From: an uncultured Acidobacteriota bacterium
Lineage (GTDB): Bacteria > Acidobacteriota > Terriglobia > JAJPHL01
Assembly: GCA_964601345.1 (NCBI GenBank)
Contig: CAZRND010000001.1
Span: forward strand, 1 to 50,420
Reading direction: 5' to 3'
Length of the DNA stretch: 50,420 nucleotides
Shown here: in pieces, positions 7,111 to 26,338 of the stretch
Layout: each line of letters opens with the position of its first letter
Numbering within the stretch: the first letter of the stretch is position 1
Notes under the pieces: generated by a model
Database searches by the model: none
Seen by the model: only the letters and a program-made list of their open reading frames with translations
What the model was told of the DNA's origin: nothing
Translations under genes and position numbers: made by a program

Positions 7111-8194
7111 GCACCCTCGCCGCCGTCAAGGCATAGGCGGCCGCGCAATCGGCGATATTTTTCACCGGAACAAACTCATTCGGCCCGTGCGAAACGGACA
7201 GCAGTCCCGGCCCATAGGCCAGCGCCGGAATACCCTGCCCGGCGTAGAAACGCGTCTCGAGTAGCCCTGGACACATCGCCAGCTCCGGACGCTTCCCGCT
7301 GACGGCCTTTACCGATTCCTGAAGCGCCATCGCGAGAGGATCTTCGGGCGCAGTTCCCGAAGCGCGTCCTTCCTGCAGGATCTCGACCTTGAGGCCGCGC
7401 AGAATCTCCATCAGCTTTGCTCTTTCAGCGGCCAGGTCTTCGCCGGGATTCGTGCGCCGATCGATGGTGAAGGAAAACTCGGCGGGAACGGCGTTGAAGC
7501 TGGTGCCGCCCTCGGCGCGACCGCCGAGCATCAGGATCGACCCGCGCGCTTCCACTTCGCGCTTCAGGTTGAGCAGAGCGCCTGCCACTGGAATCATTTT
7601 CTCGAAGGCGTTGATGCCGAGGTGCTGAAGTCCGACGTGCGCGGTCTTGCCGGGCACGGTGACGCGGAGGGAGATCGCGCCGCGGCTGGCGTTCCAAATG
7701 ACGCCGCCGGTCGGTTCGGCGGTGAGCATGCCGATGCCGCCGCGCCCGAGCACGCCGGCGCGCAACAGAGCTTCCGAACCTCGCCGCCCGCCGGTCTCCT
7801 CGTCGGGAACAAAGCACAATCCGATCCGACCGTCGAGCTCGACACGCGATTTCTCGATGGCCTTCACCGCGCCGATCATGGCCGCGAGGCCCGACTTCAT
7901 GTCCGATGATCCACGACCGAAGAGGTTCTGTCCCTTGACCGTCGGACGGAATTGACTCGGCGACTGCGCAGGCACCACGTCGTAATGACCGTGGAAGTAG
8001 AGCGTCCGCTTGCCGCGACCATGGAATGCCAGGAGGCACTCGCCGTGCCGCTCGCTCTTGAGTCCAAGGCGCCGGAGGCGGCGTTCCAGTTCGGCGCGGC
8101 AAGGTTTCTCGTCCGGGATAGCGACGAGCCGGCGCGTGATCTCGATCATCTCGCGGCGCAGCGATGCCACCGCCGCGAGAATGCGCTCGTTCAT
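7097..8194 (-). CDS. M20 family metallopeptidase (ArgE/DapE-like deacylase)
   Basis: HGHYDVVPA, FGRGSSDMKSGLAAMI and VPDEETGG motifs. The 3' end overlaps the convergent kinase gene by 14 nt. Confidence 0.8.
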   Translation of the reverse strand: MNERILAAVASLRREMIEITRRLVAIPDEKPCRAELERRLRRLGLKSERHGECLLAFHGRGKRTLYFHGHYDVVPAQSPSQFRPTVKGQNLFGRGSSDMKSGLAAMIGAVKAIEKSRVELDGRIGLCFVPDEETGGRRGSEALLRAGVLGRGGIGMLTAEPTGGVIWNASRGAISLRVTVPGKTAHVGLQHLGINAFEKMIPVAGALLNLKREVEARGSILMLGGRAEGGTSFNAVPAEFSFTIDRRTNPGEDLAAERAKLMEILRGLKVEILQEGRASGTAPEDPLAMALQESVKAVSGKRPELAMCPGLLETRFYAGQGIPALAYGPGLLSVSHGPNEFVPVKNIADCAAAYALTAARVLSRS

Positions 8195-9432: not shown

Positions 9433-12400
9433 ATGACTTGCATCCGTTTTGCTTTTGTGTGCCTTCTTCTGGCTGCTGTTTCCGCCGGCGCGCAGACATC
9501 GGCGGGCGAAGTGAACGGCACCGTTTCCGATCCCAGCAAATCGGCGGTCGCCGGCGCACAGGTGACGCTCGTGAACACGGTCACCAGGCTGGAGAATCGC
9601 GCCACGACCAATGCCGACGGCTATTACGTCTTTGTGAACGTCGCGCCCGGCGCCTATTCCCTGAAGATCGAGAACACCGGATTCAAAGGCGCCCAGCTTC
9701 CCACGTTCACGGTCGGCGTCAACCAGACCGTCACGCAGGATGTCTCGCTCCAACTCGGCCAGGTCTCGGAAACCGTGAACGTCAGCGCCGAAGCGGAGCT
9801 GATCCAGAAATCTTCGGCCGAGCTTGGCACCGTGATCCAGGAGAAAGCCGTCGAAGATCTGCCGCTCAACGGACGCAATTTCACCCAACTCCTCAGCCTC
9901 ACGCCGGGCGCCACTCCTGTCAACACGGCTCAGGGCGGAGGCGTGTCGTTTCAGGACGCCGGGCCGAGCGGCATTCCGGGATCGAACATCACCAAGCCCT
10001 CGATCCATGGACAGCAAAATCGCTCGCTGCTTTATTTCATGGACGGATTCATCAACACCGACCTGCGCGGGCCGATCTACGGCATCCTGCCGATCGTCGA
10101 CTCCATCCAGGAATTCAAGGTGCAAGGACACAATGACAAGGCCGAGTATGGCGGCGTGACCGGAGGCATCGTCAACGTCGTGTCTCGGTCGGGCGGTAAC
10201 GATTACCACGGATCGGGCTGGCAGTATCTGCGCAACAATTTCTTCGATGCTCGCAATCCGTTTGTGGATATCACTCCGGGACTTGGACCGGCGGCGTTCC
10301 GTCAGAACCAGTACGGCGCCACCATCGGCGGCCCGATCAAGCATCAGAAGACTTTCTGGTTCGGCGCCTGGGAAGGATGGCGCTACACCAAGCCGACGCA
10401 GACGCTCGACCTGGTGGCCACGCCCGCGGAGTTGAACGGCGACTTCACGAATTCCGTGTCCAAGAATCAGATTTACAACCCATACTCCACGCGGAAAAAT
10501 CCGGCGAACACCGCGCAGATCATTCGCGATCCCTTTGTGTGCGATCCGAGCGGAAATCCGGTGACGCCGCTGGCGGACGGAACGCAGGTCGGCGGGACGG
10601 CTTGCAACAAGATCCCGACGTCGTTGATCTCGGCGCCCATGCAGTCTCTGCTCAAGACCTATTTCGCGCCGTCGAACTTCCCGCTGACCGCCTCGCAGAA
10701 TTACATCGAGAACCGGCCCACCATCGACAACGCCAATAGCTGGCAGGTGAAGGTAGACCACCGCTTCAACGATTCCAACAACGTCTTCTTCCGCTTCAGC
10801 CAGATTCTCGACCATCACCTCGACACCCTGGCCGCTACGCTCGCGGACCGCCCGTCGGACTATCACGGCAACAACTACGGCGGCGGATGGACGCGCGTCA
10901 TGGGCGCGCATCTCATCCTCGACGTCCGCGCCGGCATTTTGCAAAAGCCCTACGTCTTCAACCAGACGCACAGCGCGAAGGGCATCGAGCCGTTGAAATC
11001 CGCCGGATTCCAGAACATCGACAAGTACGGCGGATTAAACGTCACCGTCGGAAGCCCCTGGACCGGGAACGAGCTCGGCAATCGCGGCGACTCGATCCGC
11101 AGAAATCCGGACTGGAGCGGCTCGGCGAACCTGAACTGGATCCACGGCCGCCACAATTTCCGCATGGGCTATCAGTACATTTACGTCGGGCGCGATCAGA
11201 TCAATACGTTCCAGCTCTTCGGATACAACGGAACGATCACCAACAATCCGGTGTCCACGGCGAATACGGGCCTCTCGCTGGCCTCGGCGCTGCTCGGATT
11301 CCCGGCGTCATCTTCCGGCGAGCTTCCCGACGGCGGCGAGGTGAATTTCCATCTCGGAACGTGGTCCATCTACGGTCAGGACGAATGGAAAGTCAGCCGC
11401 AAGGTCACGTTGAACCTGGGCCTGCGGTGGGACGTGCTGACGCAGCCGCACGTGAATAATTCGCGGCTCTTCAACGCGCTCGATCTTTTCGCCGGCAAGT
11501 GGATCATCGGAGCGAGCGCGTCCGAAATTCCGGCGTGCAACACGTCGAACACGAACCCATGTTTCCCCGGCGCGGGACTCTCCTCGGTCCCCTTTAACGA
11601 TCACATTGTTTTCGCCGGCAGCCGCGCGTTCAATCCGCCACCGGTCTACGACAACATCGGCCCGCGCTTCGGACTCGCCTGGGAAGCGACGCACAACACG
11701 GTGGTACGCATCGGCTACGGCTTGTACTACGACGCGCTGCCCGCTCGCAGCCAGTATGCCCAGAACGATCTCGAAGCCGGGCAGTGGCCGTGGGTGCGCG
11801 CATTCTCCGGCAGTCCCAACAGCGTGGTGGGCGCGGCCCTGGTGCCGATCACCGCCGTAGCGGGACAACTCTCGCAAGGCGTCCCGGCCAGCCCGTGGAA
11901 CAGCCTGCAATCGACTTTCTTCGACGATCCGCACTACAAGGACGGATGGTCACAGCAATATTCAGTCGAGATCCAGCGGCAGATGTCGTCGAGCACGGTC
12001 TTCTCCGTCGCCTACGTGGGCAGCGTCAATGGACGCCTGCCTTACACCGGACGGGCCAACGGCGCGAACAAGCCCTTTGCGCAAGGGACGCCGGCCACCA
12101 CCGTCGACACGCTGCGGGCCATGCCCTTCATGACCTCGGCCTTCAAATACACGCAGAACATCGGCGAGGGAAACTACAACTCCTTCCAGACGAAGTTGCA
12201 GCGCCGCTTCAACCGCGGGCTGATGACTTTGATTTCCTACACGTGGTCGAAGTCGCTGGACAATAGCAGCGGCTACTTCGACGTGGAGAATGGCGCGGGC
12301 CAGGGCGGCGCGACCGTGTCCGACTACTTCAACCCCGGCTTGAACCGCGGCCCGTCGGGCTACGACATCCCGCACTTCTTCTCCTGGTACACCGTCTACC

Positions 12401-12942
12401 ATCTGCCGTTCGGAAAAGGCGAGCGCTGGCTGACGAGCGGTCCGGCGGCGTGGGTGCTCGGCAACTGGCAGGCGAACTTTATTTTCCAGGCTCGCTCCGG
12501 CCAGCCCTTCAACATCAACGTCGGCGGCGATCCCGCGAATATCGGCGGCAGCATCGGCGGATTCACCGGCTACTCGCGGCCCGACGTGGTGGGCAATCCG
12601 ATCCCAGCGACGCAGACGGCGCAGTTGTGGTTCGATCCGAACGCCTTTGCCGTGCCCTCCGGCCACTTCGGAAATTATGGGCGCAACTCGCTGCGTACTT
12701 CGCACGTTGTCAACCAGGATTTCTCGATGTTCAAGACCATCAAAATCGGCGAGCGCCGCGAGCTGCAGCTTCGCTTCGAGGGCTTCAACGTTCTGAACAT
12801 CCAGAACCTCGGCGTGCCGGCGACGACCACGATCCAGTCCACGGCGGCTGGGAACCTTTCCTCCGGCGTCGGCCGGATCACGAGCCTCGCCGGCGGCACG
12901 AATCCGCGGCAAATTCAGTTCGGAGCGCGCTTCCGGTTCTGA
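9433..12942 (+). CDS. TonB-dependent outer-membrane receptor with N-terminal carboxypeptidase-regulatory-like domain
   Basis: 1169 aa. Signal peptide ending AGAQ, CarboxypepD_reg-like segment (GTVSDPSKSAVAGAQVTLVN...DGYYVFVNVAPGAYSLKIE), plug-like region (LPLNGRNFTQLL), long beta-barrel, terminal ...QFGARFRF. Confidence 0.85.
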   Translation: MTCIRFAFVCLLLAAVSAGAQTSAGEVNGTVSDPSKSAVAGAQVTLVNTVTRLENRATTNADGYYVFVNVAPGAYSLKIENTGFKGAQLPTFTVGVNQTVTQDVSLQLGQVSETVNVSAEAELIQKSSAELGTVIQEKAVEDLPLNGRNFTQLLSLTPGATPVNTAQGGGVSFQDAGPSGIPGSNITKPSIHGQQNRSLLYFMDGFINTDLRGPIYGILPIVDSIQEFKVQGHNDKAEYGGVTGGIVNVVSRSGGNDYHGSGWQYLRNNFFDARNPFVDITPGLGPAAFRQNQYGATIGGPIKHQKTFWFGAWEGWRYTKPTQTLDLVATPAELNGDFTNSVSKNQIYNPYSTRKNPANTAQIIRDPFVCDPSGNPVTPLADGTQVGGTACNKIPTSLISAPMQSLLKTYFAPSNFPLTASQNYIENRPTIDNANSWQVKVDHRFNDSNNVFFRFSQILDHHLDTLAATLADRPSDYHGNNYGGGWTRVMGAHLILDVRAGILQKPYVFNQTHSAKGIEPLKSAGFQNIDKYGGLNVTVGSPWTGNELGNRGDSIRRNPDWSGSANLNWIHGRHNFRMGYQYIYVGRDQINTFQLFGYNGTITNNPVSTANTGLSLASALLGFPASSSGELPDGGEVNFHLGTWSIYGQDEWKVSRKVTLNLGLRWDVLTQPHVNNSRLFNALDLFAGKWIIGASASEIPACNTSNTNPCFPGAGLSSVPFNDHIVFAGSRAFNPPPVYDNIGPRFGLAWEATHNTVVRIGYGLYYDALPARSQYAQNDLEAGQWPWVRAFSGSPNSVVGAALVPITAVAGQLSQGVPASPWNSLQSTFFDDPHYKDGWSQQYSVEIQRQMSSSTVFSVAYVGSVNGRLPYTGRANGANKPFAQGTPATTVDTLRAMPFMTSAFKYTQNIGEGNYNSFQTKLQRRFNRGLMTLISYTWSKSLDNSSGYFDVENGAGQGGATVSDYFNPGLNRGPSGYDIPHFFSWYTVYHLPFGKGERWLTSGPAAWVLGNWQANFIFQARSGQPFNINVGGDPANIGGSIGGFTGYSRPDVVGNPIPATQTAQLWFDPNAFAVPSGHFGNYGRNSLRTSHVVNQDFSMFKTIKIGERRELQLRFEGFNVLNIQNLGVPATTTIQSTAAGNLSSGVGRITSLAGGTNPRQIQFGARFRF

Positions 12943-14676: not shown

Positions 14677-16104
14677 CTACTTAGGCGAGGAATCGCCAGG
14701 CTCCGGATGAGCCTTGGGCACACTGTGCCCCGGCTCGGAATCCTCGCCGCTCCCGCTCGACCATTTTTCCAGCTTCTTGTAAAGCGTTCGCCGATGAAGT
14801 CCCAAGCGCGCGGCGGCCGCTGTCATGTTGCCGCCGCTCAGATGGATCGCCTCGATCACTTGCCGGCGCTCCAGCCCCGCGTCCGCATCATCAGATTCCG
14901 CAGCGTCACCCGCGCGCGGCGGCGTTCGGCTCCCCATGGCTTGGCGAACATCCCGCTCTGACGCCTCGGGGGATCGCGTGGCCGCGACGATTCGTTCCAT
15001 CGTGTTGGCCAGCTCGCGCACATTGCCGGGCCAAGGCGCGCTTTCGAGCGCGGCGTATGCCGCTTCCTGCAAGTGCACCTGCTTGCCCTGCCGCTCATTG
15101 GCTTGCTTCAGAAAACGGCGGGCCAACTGTGGAATATCGCTCCGGCGCTCGCGGAGCGGCGGCACGTGAATGCGCAGGACATTCAAGCGATGATAGAGGT
15201 CCTCGCGAAAAGCGCCCTGGCGGACCATGTCGTCCAGGTTGCGGTTGGTGGCCGCGAGCATGCGAACGTTCGCGCGCACCGCCACCGCGGCGCCCACCGG
15301 ACGAAACTCCCGGGCCTCCAGCAGGCGCAGCAGTTTGCTCTGAAACGAGAGCGGGATCTCGCCGATTTCATCGAGCAGGACAGTGCCGCCCTCGCCTTGC
15401 CGAAGTACGCCGGGGCGGTCGCGGTCCGCGCCGGTAAATGCGCCTTTCATCGCGCCAAACAACTCGCTTTCCCAAAGGTTCTCGGCGATCGCCGCGCAAT
15501 CCACGGGAACAAACGGGGAGGAGGCGCGCCGGCTATAGCGATGAACGGCCCGGGCCACTCGCTCTTTGCCCGCTCCGGTCTCGCCGAGGATCAACGTGGT
15601 GGAGTCGGAACGCGCCGCGGCGGCGATGTTCTTGTAGAGCTCGATCATGGCCGGAGAGCTCCCCAGCATTTCCTCCGCCATTTCGACGCTGCCGTCCGCC
15701 GCGTCCTCGGGAGCGGTCCGGTTCGCCCCCGCCGCGCGGACAGCGCGTTCGACCACGGAAAGGAGTTGGGCCAGAGCGACGGGCTTGGCCAAGTACTCGA
15801 AGACGCCGTCTGTTTCGGCCTCCACTGCGGTTCCCAGCGATCCCCGCGCGGTCATCAGCACCACGGCGCAGCGCGGATTGCCCGCGCGCGCGGCCCGCAG
15901 CACGTCGAGTCCGGTGACACGGTCCACATAGATGTCGGAGACGATAATCGGGAAAGCCGCCGTAGCGACTTTCTGCAGAGCCTCGGACCCGTCGTTCAAG
16001 GCGGTCACCGGATAGCCCTTGCTCTCGAGAAAATTTCCCAGCGCAATGGTGATCGCTTCGTCGTCGTCAATCAGCAGGATGGGCGGCTTGCTCATAGTTT
16101 TCAC
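14677..16104 (-). CDS. Sigma-54-dependent response regulator (NtrC family: REC + AAA+ + Fis-type HTH)
   Basis: REC (PILLIDDDEAI...VSDIYV), Walker A GETGAGKE, GAFTGA and ESELFG sigma-54 contact motifs, C-terminal HTH GGNMTAAAARLGLHRRTLYKKL. Confidence 0.9.
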   Translation of the reverse strand: MKTMSKPPILLIDDDEAITIALGNFLESKGYPVTALNDGSEALQKVATAAFPIIVSDIYVDRVTGLDVLRAARAGNPRCAVVLMTARGSLGTAVEAETDGVFEYLAKPVALAQLLSVVERAVRAAGANRTAPEDAADGSVEMAEEMLGSSPAMIELYKNIAAAARSDSTTLILGETGAGKERVARAVHRYSRRASSPFVPVDCAAIAENLWESELFGAMKGAFTGADRDRPGVLRQGEGGTVLLDEIGEIPLSFQSKLLRLLEAREFRPVGAAVAVRANVRMLAATNRNLDDMVRQGAFREDLYHRLNVLRIHVPPLRERRSDIPQLARRFLKQANERQGKQVHLQEAAYAALESAPWPGNVRELANTMERIVAATRSPEASERDVRQAMGSRTPPRAGDAAESDDADAGLERRQVIEAIHLSGGNMTAAAARLGLHRRTLYKKLEKWSSGSGEDSEPGHSVPKAHPEPGDSSPK

Positions 16105-17851
16105 GCTCCGGGAAGCGACTCTCTGGAAACTCGAGACTGAATTGCGAGCCGCGTCCGGGTTTGCTCTCCACTTCGATGTCCCCGCCGTGTTGCGCCACGA
16201 TCTCCTTCACCAGCGCCAGTCCGATTCCCGATCCCGGCGGTCCGGCCGTGGAGTGTTTCGGTTGGCGGTAGAAGCGCTCGAAGATTCGCGAGCGCTCCTC
16301 CGGCTCGATGCCCGATCCTTCGTCACCCACCGTGATCCGCGGCTTCCCGTCCGGCGTGGAAACGGTGACGGCTACCATGCTTCCGCCCGGACTGTACTTG
16401 AGCGCATTCGTCAACAGGTTGTAGACCGCAAAACCAAGCAACTCGGCGTCTCCGCAAATCGGAGCGGGGCGCAGATCTTCACGGATGACAATGTGTTTGC
16501 GGAGAGCCAGCAGGTTGGCGCGCGCGATGGCTTCGCGCGCCACCGCGGCGAGGTCCACCGGACCACGCTTCAGTTGCAACATACCGGCGGAGATCCGTTC
16601 GACATCCAGGAAAGCTCCGACCACGCGGGAGAGACGCTCGGACTCTCGGTGGATCAGCGACGCCACCGCGGCCTTGCGCTCGGCCGGCATGGTTGCGTCA
16701 GCGATCATTTCGCTGGACGCGGAGATCGCCGTCAGCGGCGTTTTGATCTCGTGGGCGATGGCTTGCAACCGCAAGGCATATTCGGCCCGTCCAGCGCCCG
16801 CTTCGCGCACCGCCGCGAGCGTGCCGGCAAACCCCGCCGCCCCGTAAGCATAGGACCATGACGCCAGAGGCACGATCCATCCCGCCAGGAGCGCCAGGTA
16901 CGAAGCTGCGGGAATCGCCAGAAAGCCGGCGGCAGCCAGGCGGCCATGTCGTCTTCGCCCTGCGAAGGCGGCCAGCAGTTGCGTGCCCAGCAACAGGACG
17001 ACGACGCTGAGGGGAGAGAGCGGGCGCAAACCGTCTTCGTCCAACAGCGTGCGCATGGCGTGGGCGTGGATCTCGATGCCGGGGATGTCGGATCCGCTGG
17101 AGACGGGAGTGAATCGGCGGTCACCCGCGCCCTGGGCGCTGACTCCCAGCAGAACGATCTTTCCAGCGAACTGCCGATCGTCCACCTGGCCTTGCAGTAC
17201 GTCGTCGAAAGGGACGGTGCGGAACGCGCCGACACGCGCGTAACGAATCCAGAGGACGCCGTCGCCGGTTTTCGGCAACGTCCGTTGCCCGGCCGTCCGC
17301 GCCGCCTCGAGGCTGAGCGCCCAGAGTCCCTGATCGCGCCCGGCGCTGACGACGCCGGATTTGGCCAGCATGATCGAGCGCACCACGCCGTCCGGGTCCG
17401 GATTGGCATGGACGTGTCCGACCGCATCGCGCGGGAACAAAGCGAGCGGGAGAATCCAACGGGGATCGATCCGGTCCGCTTCGAGGGCCGCGGCCAGCAC
17501 GACTTTGGGGAACAGTTGTAGCACGCTCGCGAGCGCCTCATCGGCTGCCGAGGCGCTCGGTTCGGAAAGAAGTAAGTCTACAACCAAAGTCTGAGGGTGC
17601 GCGGCGGCCAGCCGCCGGAGTCCACGGGCAACGATGTCTCGCTTCAAGGGCAGCGGACCCCAGCGGTTTACGGTCCGGTCATCGATAGCCAGCAAAACAA
17701 TTTGCTCGAGGCAGGGCGAGCGTCGGGCAGGAGCCAATCTCGCTAAAACGTCATTGGAGGAGTCGTTCCAGCTTTGAACGATGCCGTTCCATGCCAGCAA
17801 AGGAATCAACCCAACGAGGAGAATCCCATGCCCCCAGCGCGTTGCGTTCAT
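16067..17851 (-). CDS. CHASE2-domain sensor histidine kinase
   Basis: N-terminal TM plus extracytoplasmic CHASE2-like region (IVLLAIDDRTVNRWGPLPLKRD...LVVDLLLSEP), three TM helices, H-box HEIKTPLTAISASSEMI, ATPase GSGIGLALVKEIV. It overlaps the regulator gene by 38 nt. Confidence 0.85.
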   Translation of the reverse strand: MNATRWGHGILLVGLIPLLAWNGIVQSWNDSSNDVLARLAPARRSPCLEQIVLLAIDDRTVNRWGPLPLKRDIVARGLRRLAAAHPQTLVVDLLLSEPSASAADEALASVLQLFPKVVLAAALEADRIDPRWILPLALFPRDAVGHVHANPDPDGVVRSIMLAKSGVVSAGRDQGLWALSLEAARTAGQRTLPKTGDGVLWIRYARVGAFRTVPFDDVLQGQVDDRQFAGKIVLLGVSAQGAGDRRFTPVSSGSDIPGIEIHAHAMRTLLDEDGLRPLSPLSVVVLLLGTQLLAAFAGRRRHGRLAAAGFLAIPAASYLALLAGWIVPLASWSYAYGAAGFAGTLAAVREAGAGRAEYALRLQAIAHEIKTPLTAISASSEMIADATMPAERKAAVASLIHRESERLSRVVGAFLDVERISAGMLQLKRGPVDLAAVAREAIARANLLALRKHIVIREDLRPAPICGDAELLGFAVYNLLTNALKYSPGGSMVAVTVSTPDGKPRITVGDEGSGIEPEERSRIFERFYRQPKHSTAGPPGSGIGLALVKEIVAQHGGDIEVESKPGRGSQFSLEFPESRFPERENYEQAAHPAD

Positions 17852-18029: not shown

Positions 18030-19361
18030 TTGCTGGGAGGGCCTCTTACGAACGAACATCGCAAACGACTGCCGGTGTGGCGCCTGCTGTTCCTCGCCCC
18101 CGTGGGACTGGCGATCATCATTCCGGCGACTTGGGTCCTCGTCAGTTGGACGGCGAAGCCTCTTTTTCCAAAGCCGGAGGACGTGCCGACCGCCATGCAT
18201 TCGGCGCCTCCCGCCCCGTGGGCCGGAACGGTGGACCAGGCGCGGCAGATCGTCCGCGCGAGTGTCGCCGGGAAAAATCTGCCGGGCCTTTCGGTGGCGG
18301 TCGGTATCAACGGGAATATTGTTTGGGCAGAAGGCTTCGGGCTCGCGGATCTCCCCTCCAACGTGACGGTCACGCCGGATCACCGGTTCAGGACCGGAAC
18401 CGCTTCCACGGTGCTCACTTCGGCGGCGGCCGGCCTGCTGCTGCAGCAGGGCCGGCTGAAACTCGGCGACGAAATTCAAACCTACGTGCCCGCGTTTCCC
18501 AAGAAGCAGTGGCCTGTAACGCTGCGCGACGTGATGGGGCATACGTCCGGTGTCGTCGGCTACGACCGCGACCGCGGACCGATTTTCAACCAGCACTGCG
18601 AGCGGTTGGCGGATGCGCTCCAGTACTTCGCGGGAGACGCTCTGGTGTCCAAGCCCGGCACGCAATTTCGCTTTTCCAGCTCCAACTGGATTTTGGTGAG
18701 CGCGGCGGTCGAAGCCGCCGCGGGCCAGCCGTTCCTGACGTTCATGCGGGAGAAGATCTTCGAGCCATTGGGCATGCGCGACACCGTCCCCGAGCCCGCG
18801 CCGAACCGCGAGGGAGAAGACTTCCCGGGCTTCATTGCTATCCGCGAGCTGATCTACGATCCGGGGGCGATTCGCGGCAGCGGCGAGGACACCACGCGGA
18901 AGCCCGGGCCGGACCAGGCCTCGCCCTACTTCACGAGATTCAGATCGAATCCGACGTACGGCTGGCACACGGCGCGCCTGCTCGACAATACCTGCTACGG
19001 CGGAGCGAGCGTATTCCTCTCCACGCCGTCTGATTTGGTGCGCTTCGCGATGGCGATGAATAGCGGCAAGCTGCTCGAGCCCGCGACCGTCGCCTTGCTG
19101 CAGACTTCGCAGCGGCTGGCATCCGGAGAGGATACCGGCTACGGTCTTGGCTGGAAAGTGAAGACGGTTTCGCTGGCCGGAAAACCCACGCGCATGGTCG
19201 GCCACGACGGCGATTCACTGGGTGGAATGGTGGCGTCGCTGATGACCTTTCCAGATTACGCGATGGCGGTGGCAGTCACGTCGAATATCTCTTTTGCGGA
19301 TACAGCTTCGATTGCGGAGCGAGTCGCGCAAACGTTCGCCGCGCAGGCGAGGGGGAGATAG
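18030..19361 (+). CDS. Beta-lactamase-fold (class C / serine hydrolase family) protein with degenerate catalytic motifs
   Basis: Family hallmarks: LPGLSVAVGINGNIVWAEGFG, MGHTSGV, YGLGW and GHDGDSLGG. However, the expected SxxK reads TAST/STVL and the expected YxN reads SSN. Start uncertain (TTG 18030 or GTG 18075). Confidence 0.7.
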   Translation: MLGGPLTNEHRKRLPVWRLLFLAPVGLAIIIPATWVLVSWTAKPLFPKPEDVPTAMHSAPPAPWAGTVDQARQIVRASVAGKNLPGLSVAVGINGNIVWAEGFGLADLPSNVTVTPDHRFRTGTASTVLTSAAAGLLLQQGRLKLGDEIQTYVPAFPKKQWPVTLRDVMGHTSGVVGYDRDRGPIFNQHCERLADALQYFAGDALVSKPGTQFRFSSSNWILVSAAVEAAAGQPFLTFMREKIFEPLGMRDTVPEPAPNREGEDFPGFIAIRELIYDPGAIRGSGEDTTRKPGPDQASPYFTRFRSNPTYGWHTARLLDNTCYGGASVFLSTPSDLVRFAMAMNSGKLLEPATVALLQTSQRLASGEDTGYGLGWKVKTVSLAGKPTRMVGHDGDSLGGMVASLMTFPDYAMAVAVTSNISFADTASIAERVAQTFAAQARGR

Positions 19362-19873
19362 GTGCTTTGCGATGAACGCAGTCCTGCTGTAGACTTCTAG
19401 AGTGGATGCTGAGGGCTCTGGATGCTTCCTATGGCTACAATTTCGACTACTGCGAGTGCGGTCGGTTTTTGCCCAGAACGCTAGGAGCGTGGTAGGTGGC
19501 AGACTTTATCTACATCGACAACTCCAACCTATTCATAGAGGGCAAGAGAGTCAGCGCAGTCGTCCGCGGTCTCGCCATGAACATCTACGAGGCTATGAAC
19601 AACCGCATAATCGACCATGACTACAAATTGAGCTTCGGTCGCTTACATGAGTTCATCGCCGGTAGTGTCAAGTCCCAAATTGCGAGAGCGGTCTTGTTCG
19701 GCTCACGTCCTCCTCCGGACGATAGTATCTGGACTTTCGCCAAACGCGCAGGATTCGAGCTGGTGCTTGAAGACCGTAACGTTGCGAATAAAGAAAAAAA
19801 GATCGACACGGGTATAGTCGCAGCCATGACGAGGGATGCTTACAAGAAGGCCGATCCCGCGAACGATACGATG

Positions 19874-19878
19874 GTACT
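19874..19878. repeat. Target-site duplication GTACT (left copy)
   Basis: An identical pentamer directly abuts both IS ends. Confidence 0.7.
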
Positions 19879-19905
19879 TGTAGTGCACCCCTCTAAAACT
19901 GGACA
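19879..19905 (+). repeat. IS left inverted repeat
   Basis: TGTAGTGCACCCCTCTAAAACTGGACA, against the reverse complement of the right end TGTAGTGCACCCCGTTAAACTAGACA. Confidence 0.8.
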
Positions 19906-19946
19906 GTTCATTCTAGTATGATCGGGGCCTCCAAACAGGAGGCAGG

Positions 19947-20231
19947 ATGAGCAGGAAAGCAGCGCTTCAGAGAAGTCCGGAACTGAAACTACAGATCGTA
20001 ATGGAAGGGTTGCGGAGCGGCAACATCGCGGAGACTTGCCGCAAGCACGAGATCGCAGCGAATCTCTATTACCGCTGGAAGGACGAGGTGGAGAAGGGCG
20101 CGCTGGAAGCCTTGGGCGGCAAGCGTGGCGTCGCCGATTCCGAAAAGGATCAGCGGATTAGACAGTTGGAGCGCACGCTAGGCCGCAAGAGTCTGGAGAT
20201 CGAGATCCTAAAAAACGTTCTGGGGGACTGA
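19947..20231 (+). CDS. IS3-family transposase OrfA (HTH_Tnp_1-like)
   Basis: 94 aa. ...IAETCRKHEIAANLYYRWKDE... followed by a leucine-zipper-like tail LERTLGRKSLEIEILKNVL. GGAGG SD upstream. Confidence 0.85.
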   Translation: MSRKAALQRSPELKLQIVMEGLRSGNIAETCRKHEIAANLYYRWKDEVEKGALEALGGKRGVADSEKDQRIRQLERTLGRKSLEIEILKNVLGD

Positions 20232-20252
20232 GCTGTGGCGCAACTCACTCCC
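20210..20252 (+). promoter_or_regulatory. Programmed -1 ribosomal frameshift signal of the IS (slippery A AAA AAC plus downstream stem-loop)
   Basis: Heptamer A AAA AAC lies at 20210-20216 in the orfA frame (cta aaa aac). The -1 frame is open from here into orfB. After a 7-nt spacer there is a stem GGGACTGAG (20224-20232) / CTCACTCCC (20244-20252), 8 of 9 bp, enclosing the orfA stop. Confidence 0.55.
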
Positions 20253-20326
20253 AAGCTCGTGCGCTGGTCGAAAACGGCTATCGACCTACCGTCGTCGCCG
20301 AAGCTCTGCAGATCAGCCGCTCCAGC

Positions 20327-21103
20327 TTGTATTACCGCAAGCAGGAGCGCAGCAGTCGCGCCGATCGATCCTTCGATGACCGCATCATCGAGGCCTGCGG
20401 CGAGAAACCGGCTTACGGCTATCGCCGCGTTCAATGGTGGCTGGAACATCACCGTGGTTTGCGGCTCAATCGCAAACGTGTTCTCCGCGTCATGCAGGAA
20501 CGCGGCTTGCTCGTTCACAGCCGAAGATTGCGCGCGCGACGCCGCAAGGAATGGAGCAAAGTGATCGTCACTACGCCCAATCAAGTCTGGCAATCCGACC
20601 TGACCAAGATCTGGGCTGGCCCCAACTCCGGCTGGGCTTACCTGGTGTCGATCATCGACTGCTTCACCCGCGAGATCGTCGGCTGGGATCTTTCTTCCCG
20701 CTGCCGAACCGACGATGCCCTCAACGCTTTGAACCAGGCTGTCATCGAGCAGTTGCCTTTCGGATCGCGCGGAACTGGGCTGACCTTGACCACCGACAAC
20801 GGCACGCAGTTCACTTCTTCCCGTTTCATGGAAGTAGTTTCTTCTCTTGGCATTTTCCATCGCCGCACCGCGTTTCATCACCCGGAAGGCAATGGCTACA
20901 TCGAACGTTTTCACCGCAGCTTGAAAGAAGAGGAGGTCTGGATCAACGAATACCAAAACCTGGATGAAGCCCGCCGTTCCATCGCCCGCTACATCCAGGA
21001 GTACAATAACGACCGGCCCCATCGGGGGCTGGGCGATCGTACGCCTCACGAGGCTCGTCAGGCGTTTACCATTGACCTAAAATCCGAGGCCCTGAATGTC
21101 TAG
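20327..21103 (+). CDS. IS3-family transposase OrfB (DDE integrase core), presumably expressed as an OrfAB fusion
   Basis: The frame is -1 relative to orfA. DDE triad candidates are WQSDLT, LTTDNGTQF and HPEGNGYIERFH, followed by YNNDRPHRGLG. The stop TAG lies inside the right inverted repeat. Confidence 0.9.
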   Translation: MYYRKQERSSRADRSFDDRIIEACGEKPAYGYRRVQWWLEHHRGLRLNRKRVLRVMQERGLLVHSRRLRARRRKEWSKVIVTTPNQVWQSDLTKIWAGPNSGWAYLVSIIDCFTREIVGWDLSSRCRTDDALNALNQAVIEQLPFGSRGTGLTLTTDNGTQFTSSRFMEVVSSLGIFHRRTAFHHPEGNGYIERFHRSLKEEEVWINEYQNLDEARRSIARYIQEYNNDRPHRGLGDRTPHEARQAFTIDLKSEALNV

Positions 21104-21122
21104 TTTAACGGGGTGCACTACA
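21097..21122 (-). repeat. IS right inverted repeat
   Basis: See the left inverted repeat. 13 of 13 outer nt are identical; the inner part is imperfect with one indel. Confidence 0.8.
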
Positions 21123-21127
21123 GTACT
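21123..21127. repeat. Target-site duplication GTACT (right copy)
   Basis: Identical to 19874-19878. Confidence 0.7.
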
Positions 21128-21446
21128 CGTCGCTGGCGATGGCGACTTCGTTCCCGCTGTCCGTCAGATCGTCGAGGACGGCTACAAGGTTGAAGTCGTC
21201 TTCTGGAATCATGCATCGAAGGAACTCAAGGAACTTAGGGGGTTAGCCAAGTTCATCTCGCTAGACGAACACCTAGAGTATCTTCGTCTCAAATAAAAAG
21301 TACGCCCGACCCAACGCGTAGGTCCTAGCGGCTCTGGCCCGTGAGCATGGATGCAGGCGGTGCATTTGAGGCTAAGCCTTCGTAGTGCCGGACTCCCCGC
21401 TAGACAGAGAGGAGAGGCGGCTATTCTTTTCTGGAAGAGAATCGGG

Positions 21447-21551
21447 GTCGGCCTGGTCTGATCCATGGTTCGAACGAACGTCATTCATACGACTGCAACG
21501 TGCCGAACCGACCGTCACCTTCAGAACATAAGGAGGGTGGGGACAGATCAG
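21447..21551. repeat. Island repeat, copy A (~105 nt, imperfect internal dyad)
   Basis: It aligns along its whole length with 23693-23798. Shared blocks: GTC.GCCTGG.CTG, GTTCG, CGTCATTCAT, CGAACCG.CC, GAACAT, AGGAGGGTGGGGACA, ATCAG. The outer arms CTGATC / GATCAG and inner arms ATG(G)TTC / GAACAT can pair. Confidence 0.75.
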
Positions 21552-21739
21552 TCGTGACGCGTTTTTTTCGATGGCACACCACTCTCATTTCGGCCGCCGA
21601 AGACCATTCGGGCGAGTTCGTCGCCCAACCGGCCGGCGACCTCCGGATCACGCTCGTTCCGGAAGCGCTTGGCTAGGGTAAGGAACTGCTGCTGCTTTCG
21701 CTTCTCCGCGGCGATTTCCTTCTTGCTCACGCCCTTCAT
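21548..21739 (-). CDS. Small basic hypothetical protein (63 aa)
   Basis: MKGVSKKEIAAEKRKQQQFLTLAKRFRNERDPEVAGRLGDELARMVFGGRNESGVPSKKTRHD. It looks helical and charged, has no SD, and its stop codon is the conserved CTGAT edge of repeat A. The GTG-extended 115-aa version looks non-coding. Confidence 0.4.
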   Translation of the reverse strand: MKGVSKKEIAAEKRKQQQFLTLAKRFRNERDPEVAGRLGDELARMVFGGRNESGVPSKKTRHD

Positions 21740-21745
21740 AGCGCG

Positions 21746-21751
21746 ATTATG
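21746..21751 (-). promoter_or_regulatory. -10-like hexamer CATAAT exactly 6 nt upstream of the small-ORF ATG (possible leaderless transcript)
   Basis: The minus strand reads CATAAT CGCGCT ATG. There is no SD, and only a weak -35 (TTCGCC at 17 nt). Confidence 0.25.
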
Positions 21752-21814
21752 CACCGGAACAATTCGAAGGCGAATTAGAAAAAAGGAATCGATTCTCTGG
21801 CAGCGGAGCTGCTT

Positions 21815-21843
21815 CTCTAAGGTGCCACTTTGGCACCTTAGAG
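21815..21843. repeat. Perfect 13-bp inverted repeat / hairpin with 3-nt loop
   Basis: CTCTAAGGTGCCA ctt TGGCACCTTAGAG. It lies in the 316-nt spacer between the 516-aa gene and the small ORF. No adjacent U-tract on either strand. Confidence 0.7.
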
Positions 21844-22055
21844 GAGTGCAGAGGCCAGTAGAGAACTGTCGAGGAAGCCATGCGTCAGAGCGCACTGCGC
21901 TTATTCAGGACCTGCCGCACGTTAATGAAACCGCTCTGGTTCGGCTGTCGGATCACCAAGAGCTAGAATTGAATAATGCGCTCCGACACCCGCTAGCCCC
22001 TGCAATGCAAACGAGGAACCCCATAGCAGGACCGGGCTACTGCTTCTTTCTAGGA

Positions 22056-23606
22056 TTAATGGCTCCTCGGTTCCTGTTCCTGCAAATGGCTCAACCGCCA
22101 ATTGCGGCTCTTGAGCAGCCGCATGAAATAGGCGTCGCAAAACAGCTTCATGAATGAGGCTTCTTTGAGCGTCACCACGGCACCTTCGACGTTCTTTGAT
22201 TCGAAGCGCCCGCAGAGATCGGCAAACTGATCACGTTCGTCCATCTTGGGAAACATCTCGTCAAGGAAACGTAACATTGAATCCCGGAAACTCATGCCTT
22301 CCTTCCAATCGCCGTTCTCGGCCATTAGCGCTCTTAGGCATTCGAAGAAGTTTCCAAATACCATGCTTTCGCACTGCCAGTGAATATCGTTCAACGACAG
22401 CAACGTAAGCCCGCCAGCGTAATAGTTGAACGCTGTGTGCTGGTCGCTCTTATCCGGACCCGGCAGCGCTGCGAAGCACGCAGCGACACGGTTGAGGTCT
22501 TCCGCCGTTAGCACGCGGTTCTCGCCCCAGTCAACTTTGAGGACAGGAATTCGATCCAAGACGAGACCCATGCCTTTTTCAAGATCATGGAGGCTGTCGT
22601 AGTAGCGACTGATTTGCTCAGGCATTCGCCACCACCAAAAGCCCATCGTTCCGATATTTAGCGCGACGACGAAGTGGCGGGCGAGGCCCCAGCCGAAGTT
22701 CCAGAGCCCCTCGACAGGAACGTTGTCCTTAAGAATAAGTTCGACGATAAGTTCGTTCTTCTTCGCAACCTTCAGTCCGATCCCTTTGACGCTCATGTTC
22801 CACTGCGTAAGTTCTTTTCCTCGCAAGGAATGAGATGCGCTGATGATCCGTATGCGCAGCCGCCATTTCTCACTCTTGCCTTCAGTTGGGAGGTTGCGAC
22901 TCCTGCGCAGTTCCGCTTCGGCGGCGGTGCGGGATTCGGCGTCCGCATTGTCGAACTGCTGTCTCAGCCACGTTACCCACGCCGTTGAGCTGTGCAGTTC
23001 AGCAAGCTTGGCCATCGAGCCCCCAGAGAAGATCATCCGTCTTTTTTCCGGGTCTTCGGTTGACCTAAGAAACCAGCTTTGTAGGTCGACTTCCTTCTCC
23101 GGAATTTGATCGCGGAGCTTCTGGGCCTCCGCCATACCTAGGCGCATTGCGGCTAGTTCGATCAGTTTGCTGCACTGCTCCGCTGTGATGGCCTCCTCGG
23201 GAATGGTCAGACCGTCTTCGTCATTCTGGACATAAAGACCCGCCAGCCTCGTCGAATGAATGGACGTCGCCATGCCTGTGAGTTCCTCAAGGGCTTGTCC
23301 TGTCAAGGGCTGATAACCGAAAATCCCGCCAAAGAAACACCAGAAAAGTTTCTTAATGTGATCTTGTGTATGCTTGGCGGGCCATGCCGGCCCGTCGGGG
23401 CGCTTCGAGGCGAGACACTGGACTGCAATCAACTCCCGGCGCCCAATCTCTTCGAGCGCGAGCGCAGCAAGATGATATGCCACATTCGGGTGATTAGCGG
23501 CCTGAACCGCGCGCGCGGAATCCAACAAAGCGTGGGCATGGTCGATGCAGGCCTTCATCGCCGCAATCGTATTGTCGTCAATCCGGCGCTCTCCATTCGT
23601 AGCCAT
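22056..23606 (-). CDS. 516-aa protein: N-terminal AbiV-like (HEPN-superfamily) domain fused to an unassigned C-terminal half
   Basis: This is a long ORF in the lower-GC region. The N-terminus ...CIDHAHALLDSARAVQAANHPNVAYHLAALALEEIGRRE..., then KHTQDHIKKL and STRLAGLYVQ, resembles the AbiV family pattern (helix pair, EE(I/L)GK, H..K, R..LYV) as I recall it. Residues ~245-516 matched nothing I recognise. Confidence 0.5.
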   Translation of the reverse strand: MATNGERRIDDNTIAAMKACIDHAHALLDSARAVQAANHPNVAYHLAALALEEIGRRELIAVQCLASKRPDGPAWPAKHTQDHIKKLFWCFFGGIFGYQPLTGQALEELTGMATSIHSTRLAGLYVQNDEDGLTIPEEAITAEQCSKLIELAAMRLGMAEAQKLRDQIPEKEVDLQSWFLRSTEDPEKRRMIFSGGSMAKLAELHSSTAWVTWLRQQFDNADAESRTAAEAELRRSRNLPTEGKSEKWRLRIRIISASHSLRGKELTQWNMSVKGIGLKVAKKNELIVELILKDNVPVEGLWNFGWGLARHFVVALNIGTMGFWWWRMPEQISRYYDSLHDLEKGMGLVLDRIPVLKVDWGENRVLTAEDLNRVAACFAALPGPDKSDQHTAFNYYAGGLTLLSLNDIHWQCESMVFGNFFECLRALMAENGDWKEGMSFRDSMLRFLDEMFPKMDERDQFADLCGRFESKNVEGAVVTLKEASFMKLFCDAYFMRLLKSRNWRLSHLQEQEPRSH

Positions 23607-23612
23607 GGTCGT

Positions 23613-23618
23613 AATCTA
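23613..23618 (-). promoter_or_regulatory. -10-like hexamer TAGATT exactly 6 nt upstream of the 516-aa gene ATG (possible leaderless transcript)
   Basis: The minus strand reads TAGATT ACGACC ATG. There is no SD and no convincing -35. Confidence 0.2.
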
Positions 23619-23692
23619 CCATTGGGGAATACGCAACCGGAACAGGCAACCCGGTTCAGCCTGACCTCGCCCTAGCTTCCTAGAAACTCGGT

Positions 23693-23798
23693 GTCAGCCT
23701 GGCCTGTCCCCCTTGTTCGGACGGGCGTCATTCATGCCGTTTGGCGAACCGGCCCGCTAGCTTAGCTTCCGAACATCCAGGAGGGTGGGGACAATCAG
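23693..23798. repeat. Island repeat, copy B (~106 nt, imperfect internal dyad)
   Basis: Same orientation as copy A. The arms CCTG..CTGTCCCC.TTGTTCGGA and TTCCGAACA...GGGGACA..CAGG can pair. It begins (minus sense) at the stop codon of the 448-aa gene and fills much of the gap to the 516-aa gene. Confidence 0.75.
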
Positions 23799-25141
23799 GC
23801 TGGCCCTTGTTTCCCTTGTTCCTTGCTTGCCGTTTCAGCTTCTGGTGGAGGACCCGTTAGAAGCGGAATACGGTGGTACCGGTAACGATCCATGTCTTTC
23901 AGCGCGGCGCGAACCCGATCCCTCGTTTTCGCCGAACGCCAGAGGCGAGACACCGTTGACCCAAACATCACGAGCCCTCCCATGATGCTGGCGGCGGTAC
24001 CCACCACATTGGCCCCTGGCGCGAGACTGGACAGGACTATCCCAAAGCAAGCTGCTGCGAAGCCAACACTTGTCGCTAGCTTCTCGATGCAGGCGACCAT
24101 TGCTCGCGGGCTCTTCGGGTTAGCGGCGGCGAATCCGTCCAGCGACGCCGTCCACGCCTCGACGAGCTTGGCATCGTCGACTGTCTCTTCGTTGGCTATC
24201 CTTGACCGAACCGCCGCAATCACAGTGCCGACACCCTTGCACAAGACGATCTTGCCGATTTTCCTAGTTCCAAGTGGGGTCCACAAGCCCGGAGGTTCCT
24301 CGTCGCTTGTTTCGCGAAGTGGAGGCTCGGGCAAGAAGGGGGTGAACACTCCCTCTGCCCGCTCAGCGTCACTGTAAACAGCTGCAAACACCGACTGCGC
24401 CAGTTTGCGAACCTCTCCCTCAATTGCCCCAAATTTCTTTGTTTGCGCCAATTGGTACACGCGCGACCGAGGTGACTCAATCGACCCAATGATCTTTTTG
24501 CCTTCATCCCGTATGGATGCGGCCGCCTTCTCGGGGTCGGCAGCCAGTTCGCTAAATTCCACAAGTAGGCCGGGGCTGCTGAAGTCAAAGTCGTTCGCGG
24601 ATTGCGTGCTCGCACATATGTGGCACGCTTCCAGAAATTCCTTGGCGAACAACTGTGGAATTTGGGCAGACCAAGCTTGTTCTCGTCGGGCCACAGAGTT
24701 TCTGTCCAGGAGTTCGTCGAGTTTCTTATGAAACGTCAGGAAAGGCTCTGTGTCTGGATCAAAAGGTCGTCCCTGATAGCTGCTTTGCCTCTTCACGTGC
24801 AAGGCCCGGGCTCGGATCGGCTGCTTACGCGACTTCTCGCCCAATTCGTTGTCCGGGTAGTTCTCGGGGCGCTGAGTATTGATCCTGACACCGCCAGTGG
24901 AGCAGATTTCCTCCAGTAGATCGAACCAGTGCGGATTCCTTAGCAACGCCTTCGCGAGGGGACGATTTACTGCGATGTGCTGGTCGGGTATCAGAACTTC
25001 CTTGTATCTCATCGACGCTGCAATAAGCTGAATTAATATGACCTCAGCGGGCAAAGCCTCATAAACTTGCGGATCCCAGTGAGTAAGGACGACCTTGCGC
25101 CGTCCGGATCCAGCTGAAGAACTTGTCGGTCTTGTGTCCAT
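23795..25141 (-). CDS. 448-aa hypothetical protein with a C-terminal two-helix, Gly/Ala-rich membrane hairpin
   Basis: Long ORF, with GAGG ~10 nt upstream of the ATG. Residues ~355-396 (nt 23954-24079) read LATSVGFAAACFGIVLSSLAPGANVVGTAASIMGGLVMFGSTV, followed by a basic tail. No family recognised for the ~350-aa N-terminal part. Confidence 0.6.
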   Translation of the reverse strand: MDTRPTSSSAGSGRRKVVLTHWDPQVYEALPAEVILIQLIAASMRYKEVLIPDQHIAVNRPLAKALLRNPHWFDLLEEICSTGGVRINTQRPENYPDNELGEKSRKQPIRARALHVKRQSSYQGRPFDPDTEPFLTFHKKLDELLDRNSVARREQAWSAQIPQLFAKEFLEACHICASTQSANDFDFSSPGLLVEFSELAADPEKAAASIRDEGKKIIGSIESPRSRVYQLAQTKKFGAIEGEVRKLAQSVFAAVYSDAERAEGVFTPFLPEPPLRETSDEEPPGLWTPLGTRKIGKIVLCKGVGTVIAAVRSRIANEETVDDAKLVEAWTASLDGFAAANPKSPRAMVACIEKLATSVGFAAACFGIVLSSLAPGANVVGTAASIMGGLVMFGSTVSRLWRSAKTRDRVRAALKDMDRYRYHRIPLLTGPPPEAETASKEQGKQGPA

Positions 25142-25267: not shown

Positions 25268-26338
25268 CTACGGTTTCTTCTCTTCCGGAGTGTCGAACGT
25301 GATCTTGGATTCGGCGCTGAACTTGCGATAGAGGCGGAACTCGATTTCGTTTTTCGTCGTCAGGCGGCCTTCGGCCATCAGCACCGTCGCTCGCTTCGGC
25401 AGCAGAAAAATGATCCCGGATATGTCCACGAACTCGTACTCCAGCGTCGTGTCCGCCATGTTCACCGGGAAATCGCGCGGGATGTCGATCGCCGTCATCG
25501 TCAGCTTCAGCACCTGCGCGGACTCGCGGTCCACCCACACGCGCCCCCGGTAGGCCGGGATGATCGTTTCCTTCTTGTTGTAGGTGATGTGCCACTGCGA
25601 GTGAATCTGCTGCACGCCGTACACGTAAACTTCCGCCGCGCGACCGTTGATCGCCGCCTGCTTCGACCACGCAAACTTCGTTTCCGTGGCCGGCTCGAAA
25701 ATCCCGAGCAGCAACGACCCGAACTCGCCCGTGCTCACCGCTCCGTTCAGCGCGTCGTAGCTCTTATCCACAAGCTGGTTGTTGACGGTGTTGATCTGGT
25801 AGCTCTCGCCCTTGCCGCGCTCATAACTCAGCCGCGCCTGGATCGTGTCGAGAAGACGCCACGAGCCTCGTCCAGTCGGATCGGCATGACGCTTGGTCTG
25901 CTGCACGCAAATGAAGCTCGGCAGATTCGCGGTGTAGGACAGCGCGCGGTTGCGGGCGCGCTCGAGCAACTCGTCCTGACCCGCCACATTGAGCGGCGGC
26001 GGCAGCGGGATCTGCTTCTCCGGCTCCGGAATCGACGTGGCCGCGGCCAGCGACGGCGGCGCCTTCTGACGCGTCTCGGACGCCTTGGCGAGCGCCGCGA
26101 GCACGCCATCGGTGGCGCCTGCTTTCTTGAACGAGCGGCGCAGCGGTTCGGTCAGCCGGAAATCGACGCCGCGCTTCTGCACCTGTTCGATGATGTTCGC
26201 TTCCCCGATCGTCTGGATGTAGCGCAGTTGCAGGTAGAGCTGGTCTTCGGTGAACGGAGGACCAACGGTCTCCTTCGGCAGTTCCTGCGCCAGCAGAGAC
26301 AACGCCGCCACCGCAGCGAGCAGGGTAAGGAACCTCAT
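25268..26338 (-). CDS. Secreted hypothetical protein (356 aa)
   Basis: Signal peptide MRFLTLLAAVAALSLLAQ. High-GC codon usage like the flanking core genes. No family recognised. Confidence 0.6.
   Translation of the reverse strand: MRFLTLLAAVAALSLLAQELPKETVGPPFTEDQLYLQLRYIQTIGEANIIEQVQKRGVDFRLTEPLRRSFKKAGATDGVLAALAKASETRQKAPPSLAAATSIPEPEKQIPLPPPLNVAGQDELLERARNRALSYTANLPSFICVQQTKRHADPTGRGSWRLLDTIQARLSYERGKGESYQINTVNNQLVDKSYDALNGAVSTGEFGSLLLGIFEPATETKFAWSKQAAINGRAAEVYVYGVQQIHSQWHITYNKKETIIPAYRGRVWVDRESAQVLKLTMTAIDIPRDFPVNMADTTLEYEFVDISGIIFLLPKRATVLMAEGRLTTKNEIEFRLYRKFSAESKITFDTPEEKKP

Follow-up and report, generated by a model that had tools for sequence, protein, structure and literature searches.

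A private two-copy repeat around an AbiV gene in an islet of an uncultured Acidobacteriota bacterium, and its possible origin as an insertion scar

Introduction

What is a repeat that occurs only twice, at the 3' ends of two neighboring reading frames, with a single defense gene in between: a pair of cassette recombination sites, a small mobile foldback, a structured RNA, or a scar left by an insertion? The question is raised by a 50,420-nucleotide stretch of DNA from an uncultured Acidobacteriota bacterium of the Terriglobia (positions 1 to 50,420 of contig CAZRND010000001.1, assembly GCA_964601345.1), to which we refer as the window. Two copies of the repeat, here called copy A and copy B, bracket a gene of the AbiV (HEPN) abortive-infection family. 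A preliminary description of the window, made from the sequence alone, saw in them elements of ~105 nt, each beginning at the stop codon of a minus-strand open reading frame (ORF), and suggested a cassette-like organization.

Our analysis does not support the cassette interpretation. The bracketed arrangement is best read as the product of a recombination or insertion. The version that we favor, to which we give roughly one chance in three (0.35), is that the copies are scars resembling the left and right attachment sites (attL and attR) of an integrated element, that is, a duplicated 3' end and hairpin flank of a 448-aa gene around an AbiV-carrying insert. The repeat adds one more case to the scars or foldback repeats of a kind already known.

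Sequence and extent of the repeat

Gapped blastn within the window aligned copy A with copy B (Table 1) in direct orientation over 135 columns with 70% identity (E 3e-12), and a whole-window self-comparison recovered the match at E 1e-9. When each copy was used as the query of a sensitive blastn search of the window, the sole match was the other copy. The two same-orientation copies described earlier are thus borne out, and their extent is slightly longer than stated, at ~130 nt. No third copy was found in the 50-kb window, its 44 kb of core flanks included, by nhmmer with a profile built from copies A and B, in agreement with the preliminary description. The weaker third match proposed at 19474-19492 is not significant by local alignment (p 0.13 against copy A, p 0.56 against copy B), and its AGGAG-N8-GTG is the ribosome-binding site and GTG start of the NYN-domain gene.

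The 15-mer AGGAGGGTGGGGACA is identical in both copies and absent from the rest of the window; CGTCATTCA(T) and GAACAT are likewise common to copies A and B. Such blocks had been taken as strictly conserved. However, 99 of the 142 aligned columns are identical, and identical runs of 15 and 9 are seen in 9-13% of column shuffles, so that the run lengths lie within chance at 70% identity and do not speak for constraint. The spread of the identical blocks is compatible with uniform decay. None of the reading frames is open, or alike, in A and B, which makes a coding relic unlikely as the origin of the repeat.

Folding of the two copies

Each copy was claimed to fold, with arm differences that looked compensatory. 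For copy B the first claim holds: on one strand it folds at -58 kcal/mol (z -3.7 against shuffles) and on the other at -59 kcal/mol (z -3.5), and its arms are complementary at p 0.025. Copy A folds no better than its shuffles (z +0.4 and -1.0 on the two strands; arm-to-arm complementarity p 0.44). When the fold of copy B is mapped on the alignment, copy A keeps 26 of the 47 pairs, one is changed on both sides and ~19 are broken, and a shuffle control equals the observed pair values in 238 of 500 trials. With a single two-sided change, and shuffles doing as well so often, the differences between the arms cannot be called compensatory. The RNAalifold consensus of both copies has 13 pairs at -12 kcal/mol; a shared fold and covariation between the copies are absent.

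Copy B has imperfect terminal inverted repeats of ~17-28 nt (CAGCCTG..TGTCCCC), none being detectable in copy A, and forms a closing stem of ~20 bp with A-rich and U-rich flanks and a branched interior of ~85 nt. Among 20 gene 3' flanks tested in the window it is the lone strongly structured one (131 nt, z -4.1); for this reason we rejected the view that copy B is a typical terminator of this genome. No Rfam 15 family reached its gathering score across the window, and at E<=10 the region 21250-23900 gave three weak matches (E 0.7-4), all outside the copies. A tRNA or tmRNA that might serve as an attachment target was not found.

The stop codons at the two copies

Once a 1-nt gap is allowed, a TGA stands at the same aligned position in both copies, where it terminates the minus-strand ORFs at 21548-21550 and 23795-23797. 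The shared stop triplet of the preliminary description is therefore real; the ORF that it closes at copy A is not a gene.

At copy B, the last five codons and the TGA of the 448-aa gene lie within the right arm. The 448-aa protein is, by its homologs, a member of a real, unnamed family: a full phmmer scan gave 99 representatives at E<=1e-3 (best 39% identity), a word index gave no homologs, and the protein matched no Pfam, PADLOC or NCBIfam family. The relatives are mostly ~440-460 aa long. The C-terminal tail of the 448-aa protein is ~10 aa longer than that of its homologs and extends into copy B. Judged by eye, a hydrophobic C-terminal segment of the protein resembles two membrane helices. 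The gene, which adjoins AbiV, could be an uncharacterized defense or effector gene.

At copy A, the "63-aa ORF" (21548-21739) is the remnant of a longer gene. Its homologs (P0123-P0127) are ~85 aa long and end at ...MVFGG; P0124 is annotated with 50 aa, starting at an internal codon, and the frame upstream of it gives the same ribbon-helix-helix (RHH)-like N-terminus. In the remnant the native TGA is now CGA, and the frame stays open for 14 further codons before it meets a TGA at copy A's edge. Identity to the relatives is 75-79% over 140-159 nt (blastn), and the N-terminal half is gone; the relic is cut short on either side. In the four loci of P0124 (L059-L062) the ~85-aa gene is succeeded by an 81-aa gene that overlaps it; tblastn found no trace of this partner near the relic. 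From a relic cut at both ends and the loss of its partner gene, deletions appear to have occurred inside the bracketed segment. The coincidence of an ORF stop with the start of the element at copy A is accordingly an accident of read-through, not cassette organization. The RelB-like match of the relic (E 0.007) is below the curated cut-off, and its toxin-antitoxin label is for this reason tentative.

The small gene and its partner form a conserved two-gene module in L059 (~895-1404) and L060-L062, an ~85-aa RHH/RelB-like protein followed by the overlapping 81-aa protein. Neither has a Pfam family, and the module is toxin-antitoxin-like by its organization only. The repeat is absent from these four loci.

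The bracketed segment and the islet

Both copies lie within an islet of ~5.8 kb, the genes of which have a G+C content at third codon positions (GC3) of ~0.6, compared with ~0.8 in the flanking core genes. The islet is bounded by a beta-lactamase-family gene (18030-19361) and a 356-aa gene (25268-26338). Its order on the minus strand is the 448-aa gene, copy B, the 516-aa AbiV/HEPN gene, the "63-aa ORF", copy A and, convergent to these, the NYN gene (Table 1).

That the copies bracket a 2.1-kb segment was confirmed, and the segment is foreign DNA. It is a mosaic in which 60 nt precede the self-promoted AbiV unit, 312 nt of unknown DNA part this unit from the 159-nt relic, and 23 nt follow. With such mosaic content, a truncated pseudogene at copy A and an AbiV gene that has its own promoter, the proposed unit, in which ORF(s) and a 3' element recur together, falls away. 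In the non-coding stretch between AbiV and the relic there is a perfect 13-bp palindrome, CTCTAAGGTGCCA-ctt-TGGCACCTTAGAG (21814-21846), which could be an operator or a terminator.

Table 1. Positions of the repeat copies and of the genes of the islet in the window
Feature	Positions	Strand	Basis and remarks
Repeat copy A	21436..21566	.	Decayed; lies where the NYN gene (end at 21296) and the gene relic converge
Repeat copy B	23682..23812	.	Well-preserved 131-nt foldback; alignment, fold, arm complementarity
448-aa gene	23795..25141	-	phmmer family, unnamed; C-terminal alignment
AbiV (HEPN) abortive-infection gene, 516 aa	22056..23621	-	Pfam HEPN_AbiV 1e-16; NCBIfam AbiV_defense 3e-14
Relic of ~85-aa gene, tentatively RelB/RHH-like	21548..21748	-	DNA homology 21590-21748 only
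NYN-domain gene	19496..21296	+	Left end of islet; Pfam NYN; split by IS3-family element

AbiV and its loci in other genomes

AbiV has 241 homologs, and its closest named relatives are from Terriglobia. In seven AbiV loci from other genomes the DNA homology to the window is confined to 22061-23621, with gene identities of 76-83%, and the repeat is absent from all seven. In the window, TGGTAGATT at 23613-23621 precedes the ATG at 23606. The motif TGnTAGATT is invariant 6-7 nt before the ATG in all eight AbiV contexts (~7985-8003 in L046, L047, L048, L053 and L057; ~790-809 in L051; ~3680-3699 in L055), and the sequence further upstream is unrelated. From this conservation, TGnTAGATT is probably an extended -10 promoter and the AbiV start leaderless. 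Because the -10 box and the gene are conserved across the eight contexts while the upstream sequence is unrelated, AbiV seems to travel as a promoter plus ORF. Copy B lies 60 nt upstream of this promoter on the minus strand.

Two further ideas on the hairpin were rejected. An RNA partner of AbiV, in the style of type III toxin-antitoxin systems, conflicts with the absence of the repeat from the seven loci, and a long hairpin as a general feature upstream of AbiV conflicts with upstream folds that are inconsistent across the loci.

AbiV homologs commonly sit on conjugative-element-like DNA together with ParB_N, ArdC-N, DUF2958 and Mob genes, which makes AbiV plausible cargo. In one locus, L048, from a Terriglobia metagenome-assembled genome, an 82-nt direct repeat (7906-7987 / 10883-10964; 84% identity), unrelated to that of the window, brackets AbiV together with 195-aa and 72-aa genes. 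One copy lies 10 nt past the stop of a housekeeping MR_MLE gene and the other ends exactly at the AbiV -10 box, a geometry relative to AbiV that differs from that of the window. No recombinase gene is called between the two copies. L053 and L047 too have repeats beside AbiV, but these are members of families that recur in conjugative-element-like loci. Since the loci compared were all centered on AbiV, a bracketing repeat pair among them is not to be counted as rare by chance.

Two repeat families were seen in these loci. One is a conserved ~100-nt intergenic family with the core TCAACGGCGCTGCCCGCTCC...CCCGTGTTGGCCGTTTCCCTCCGGTGA, found in L047 (12796-12902 / 16346-16457), L057 (9616-9733 / 11985-12106) and L053 (13952-14042 / 15060-15163). 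Each copy stands just upstream of a gene in conjugative-element-like loci (a 77-aa gene preceding DUF2958, ArdC-N, 263-aa genes and a 79-aa gene), and the family may be a repeated promoter or a leading-region single-strand promoter. The second, a hairpin-rich family (...GTCGGGCTCTACTCG...CACCGAGCC...GGTGACGATCCCTGGCGC), occurs in L047 (4238-4331 / 7864-7957), L053 (7903-7954 / 12506-12556) and L057 (~7890-7975), with one copy directly upstream of AbiV in these three conjugative-element-like loci.

Searches for further copies

How private is the repeat? The public collections scanned do not contain the window itself, and the exact-block patterns used miss diverged copies, so the absence of further copies is unproven. 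Within these limits no other copy was found. In viral contigs (IMG/VR) the 15-mer AGGAGGGTGGGGACA gave 41 chance matches, none of which extends past the 15-mer, and two other patterns gave 0 and 1 matches. GAACAT-N0-3-AGGAGGGTGGGGAC had two chance matches in JGI metagenomes, as had GTCATTCAT-N30-60-AGGAGGGTGGGG in 596 Gb of genomes (GTDB). Blastn found no match to either copy or to a 4-kb islet segment in plasmids (PLSDB), nor to copy B, the only copy used there, in phage records. The preliminary description had named a lack of other copies, together with a similarity due to simple local duplication, as an outcome that would count against its reading, and as far as these limited scans reach this is the outcome.

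Other features of the window

The NYN gene is split by an IS3-family insertion sequence (IS) at 19879-21122, which has HTH_Tnp_1 and rve ORFs (Pfam), an intact inverted repeat, TGTAGTGCACCCC, and, read from the sequence, a perfect 5-bp target duplication, GTACT, on its flanks. Since the gene (parts 19496-19878 and 21128-21296) is otherwise intact, the insertion is recent. A link between the repeat and this element was rejected, as their ends are unrelated.

The wider region is ordinary chromosome. It carries TonB-type OMP_b-brl_4 genes, which we take to be typical of Acidobacteriota. At 31-1002 an AtuA gene is split, with adjacent ORFs (31-438 and 442-1002) matching consecutive parts of the Pfam model; the split is a stop, a frameshift or a sequencing error.

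Discussion

How did two diverged copies of one repeat come to flank an AbiV gene? For scars of the attL/attR type, several observations can be brought forward. The DNA between the two direct copies has a separate origin, and one of the copies sits where the putative target gene ends. The aligned region covers the last codons and the stop of that gene, as expected for an insert that targets a gene 3' end. The decay is asymmetric, in that copy B, attached to its gene, keeps its fold and the orphan copy A lost it without compensation. Both copies are inside the low-GC3 islet and none is in the core flanks, which we also count for a scar, as we do the deletions that the truncated relic and its lost partner point to and the plausibility of AbiV as cargo of conjugative-element-like DNA. 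L048, with its unrelated repeat, is a parallel case.

From these observations we infer a history of integration followed by deletion. An incoming element would have carried its own diverged copy of the 3'-end region of the 448-aa gene, comprising the last codons, the stop and the hairpin flank, and would have recombined with the resident copy in a reaction resembling attP x attB, so that two hybrid sites arose. Copy B would have stayed on the 448-aa gene, supplying its stop codon and a stable foldback, which is probably a 3'-end hairpin that insulates the self-promoted AbiV; copy A would be the displaced orphan, since decayed. Later deletions would have removed the recombinase and most of the element, leaving AbiV, the doubly truncated relic and non-coding filler. 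The stability of its fold suggests that copy B has kept a role as a 3' hairpin that parts the 448-aa gene from AbiV. Efficient RecA pairing needs roughly 20-30 nt of identity. The longest identical run of the two copies, 15 nt, is too short for efficient RecA recombination, and the repeats are thus now inert and do not readily recombine with each other.

Precedents for such scars exist. Phage 21 and e14 reportedly integrate at the icd 3' end, for which they bring a substitute, and integrase-less remnants flanked by attachment (att) sites are known as cis-mobilizable elements (CIMEs). The islet resembles them in that imperfect direct repeats flank foreign DNA, that the repeat holds the last codons and stop of the abutting gene, that one copy is functional on a gene and the other an orphan, and that the cargo is a defense gene plus a toxin-antitoxin-like gene. 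In contrast to phage 21, e14 and the CIMEs, the window has no recombinase and its target gene is not conserved; its repeat has a lower identity (70%) and spans a whole foldback, and no empty site or excision product is known for it.

Several findings weigh against a scar of this kind. The putative target, the 448-aa gene, belongs to the foreign islet rather than to the conserved core. The limits of homology coincide with those of the copy B palindrome to ~10 nt, for which a mobile foldback would be more natural, and typical att duplications are shorter, and closer in sequence, than a repeat of 130 nt at 70% identity. The 15-nt identical run is not beyond chance (P 0.13), and no crossover core can be claimed from it. 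Genes in this window do not as a rule end in long foldbacks, and neither copy was flagged in an intrinsic-terminator consensus scan. A Pfam scan for recombinases, which covered 38 of the 45 window ORFs and the stop-to-stop fragments (>=35 aa) of the non-coding DNA of the islet, found none other than the IS transposase among the ORFs and no integrase remnants among the fragments. Lastly, the exact 448-aa, 356-aa and 443-aa proteins (the 448-aa gene and its core neighbors) occur on no other contig, and no empty-site allele was found.

Could the unit itself have been mobile? The copies would then be two old insertions, at gene 3' ends, of a non-autonomous, once-mobile palindrome of ~130 bp that came from the islet donor, B being intact and A degenerate, comparable with transposable elements of the miniature inverted-repeat type (MITEs), enterobacterial repetitive intergenic consensus (ERIC) sequences or Correia elements. 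We regard this as the chief rival and as rather unlikely, although much of the anatomy agrees with it. The limits of the unit are those of the palindrome, with the imperfect terminal inverted repeats of copy B; the copies share no coding frame, and their size fits the class. The upstream reading frames enter the element and stop inside it, and a truncated gene lies beside copy A, as in transposon-adjacent deletions. Like the members of these families, the repeat is a non-coding imperfect palindrome of ~130 bp with, in copy B, inverted ends, sits at gene 3' ends where it can supply a stop codon, and has copies that decay. Unlike them, it has two copies only, in one islet, 2.2 kb apart and in the same orientation, with none in the 44-kb flanks and none in the limited scans of genomes, metagenomes, viral contigs, PLSDB and phage records. 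On inspection neither copy has a target-site duplication; the ends are unlike those of the resident IS3-family element, no partner insertion sequence with matching ends is known, and no family members came from the collections searched.

That the copies are a neutral relic, left by illegitimate recombination or by local duplication of a segment, with nothing site-specific involved and no need of a present function, is unlikely in our estimate. The identity is spread as in uniform decay, there is neither covariation nor another copy, and the surrounding DNA is a patchwork of relics, all as such an origin would have it. However, the 47-pair foldback of copy B (z ~-3.6) is not expected of 130 nt of drifting DNA, and a tandem duplication needs an extra deletion that ends exactly at the repeat boundary.

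It is improbable that the repeat is a structured RNA, be it a small RNA from a 3' UTR, a processing site or an antitoxin RNA, or that it groups several operators to which proteins bind. Copy B does fold well, and its minus-strand RNA, as the sequence reads, has a C-rich, anti-Shine-Dalgarno-like CCCACCCUCCU directly after the stop codon; a near-palindromic TCAGSCTGR occurs three times around copy B. Yet copy B folds equally on both strands, which makes the palindrome a property of the DNA, and the three occurrences are no more than chance would give, 30 direct-repeat families (20 listed) having similar scores. No Rfam match is relevant even at E<=10, the copies have no common structure and only one compensatory pair, and the element is not conserved beside any AbiV homolog, which rules out an AbiV-specific RNA partner.

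Integron cassettes often encode defense or toxin-antitoxin genes. The repeat shares with their attC sites, and with the clusters of attC sites lacking integron-integrases (CALINs), a length in the range of 60-140 nt, a direct orientation after ORFs, imperfect dyads and variable centers. It differs in that the end boxes RYYYAAC...GTTRRRY are absent, the inner arms reading GTTC...GAAC with the opposite polarity, that one copy alone folds, that there is no IntI, and that the bracketed gene is self-promoted and the segment a mosaic. A regular-expression search for the attC boxes R'' (RYYYAAC) and R' (GTTRRRY) on both strands gave two candidates in the window, one listed at 39333-39393, and neither overlaps 21300-21700 or 23600-23900. 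No Phage_integrase (IntI) match was present in the scanned window ORFs. On the missing boxes, the single folding copy, the lack of IntI and the promoter of the bracketed gene, attC sites are excluded.

Recombination sites of a non-integron cassette system were among the roles that the preliminary description listed. That the copies are such sites, still active, with cassettes made of ORF(s) and a 3' site and a recombinase at some other locus, is very improbable: the sites are direct and follow stop codons, the bracketed gene is a defense gene and L048 provides another recombinase-less AbiV segment between imperfect direct repeats, but the ORF that leads to copy A is a pseudogene read through its lost stop, the segment is a mosaic with a self-promoted AbiV, there are no attC boxes, no recombinase in the ORFs scanned and no shared fold, copy A having lost its own, the repeat is missing at the seven other AbiV and the four small-gene loci, and the L048 repeats are unrelated in sequence and placed differently relative to AbiV.

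A more speculative extension of the insertion scar, and a long shot, is that in soil Acidobacteriota small AbiV modules without a recombinase insert beside the 3' ends of genes, through a mechanism that acts in trans or is unknown and that duplicates 80-130 bp of local, hairpin-containing target, the window and L048 being two independent products. The repeats would then be locus-specific, and not carried with AbiV, because the local target is what is duplicated. If a long locus-specific duplication were a regular signature of AbiV insertion, it would be a sign that single defense genes can move by a route not yet described.

In summary, we read the feature as a private two-copy scar in a decaying defense islet, in an otherwise ordinary context. 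A pseudogene read through to a stop codon that both copies share can, as the locus illustrates, give the look of a cassette architecture. The description of AbiV as a minimal unit, a probable extended -10 promoter and a leaderless ORF found in eight unrelated contexts, should be useful for the annotation of this family.

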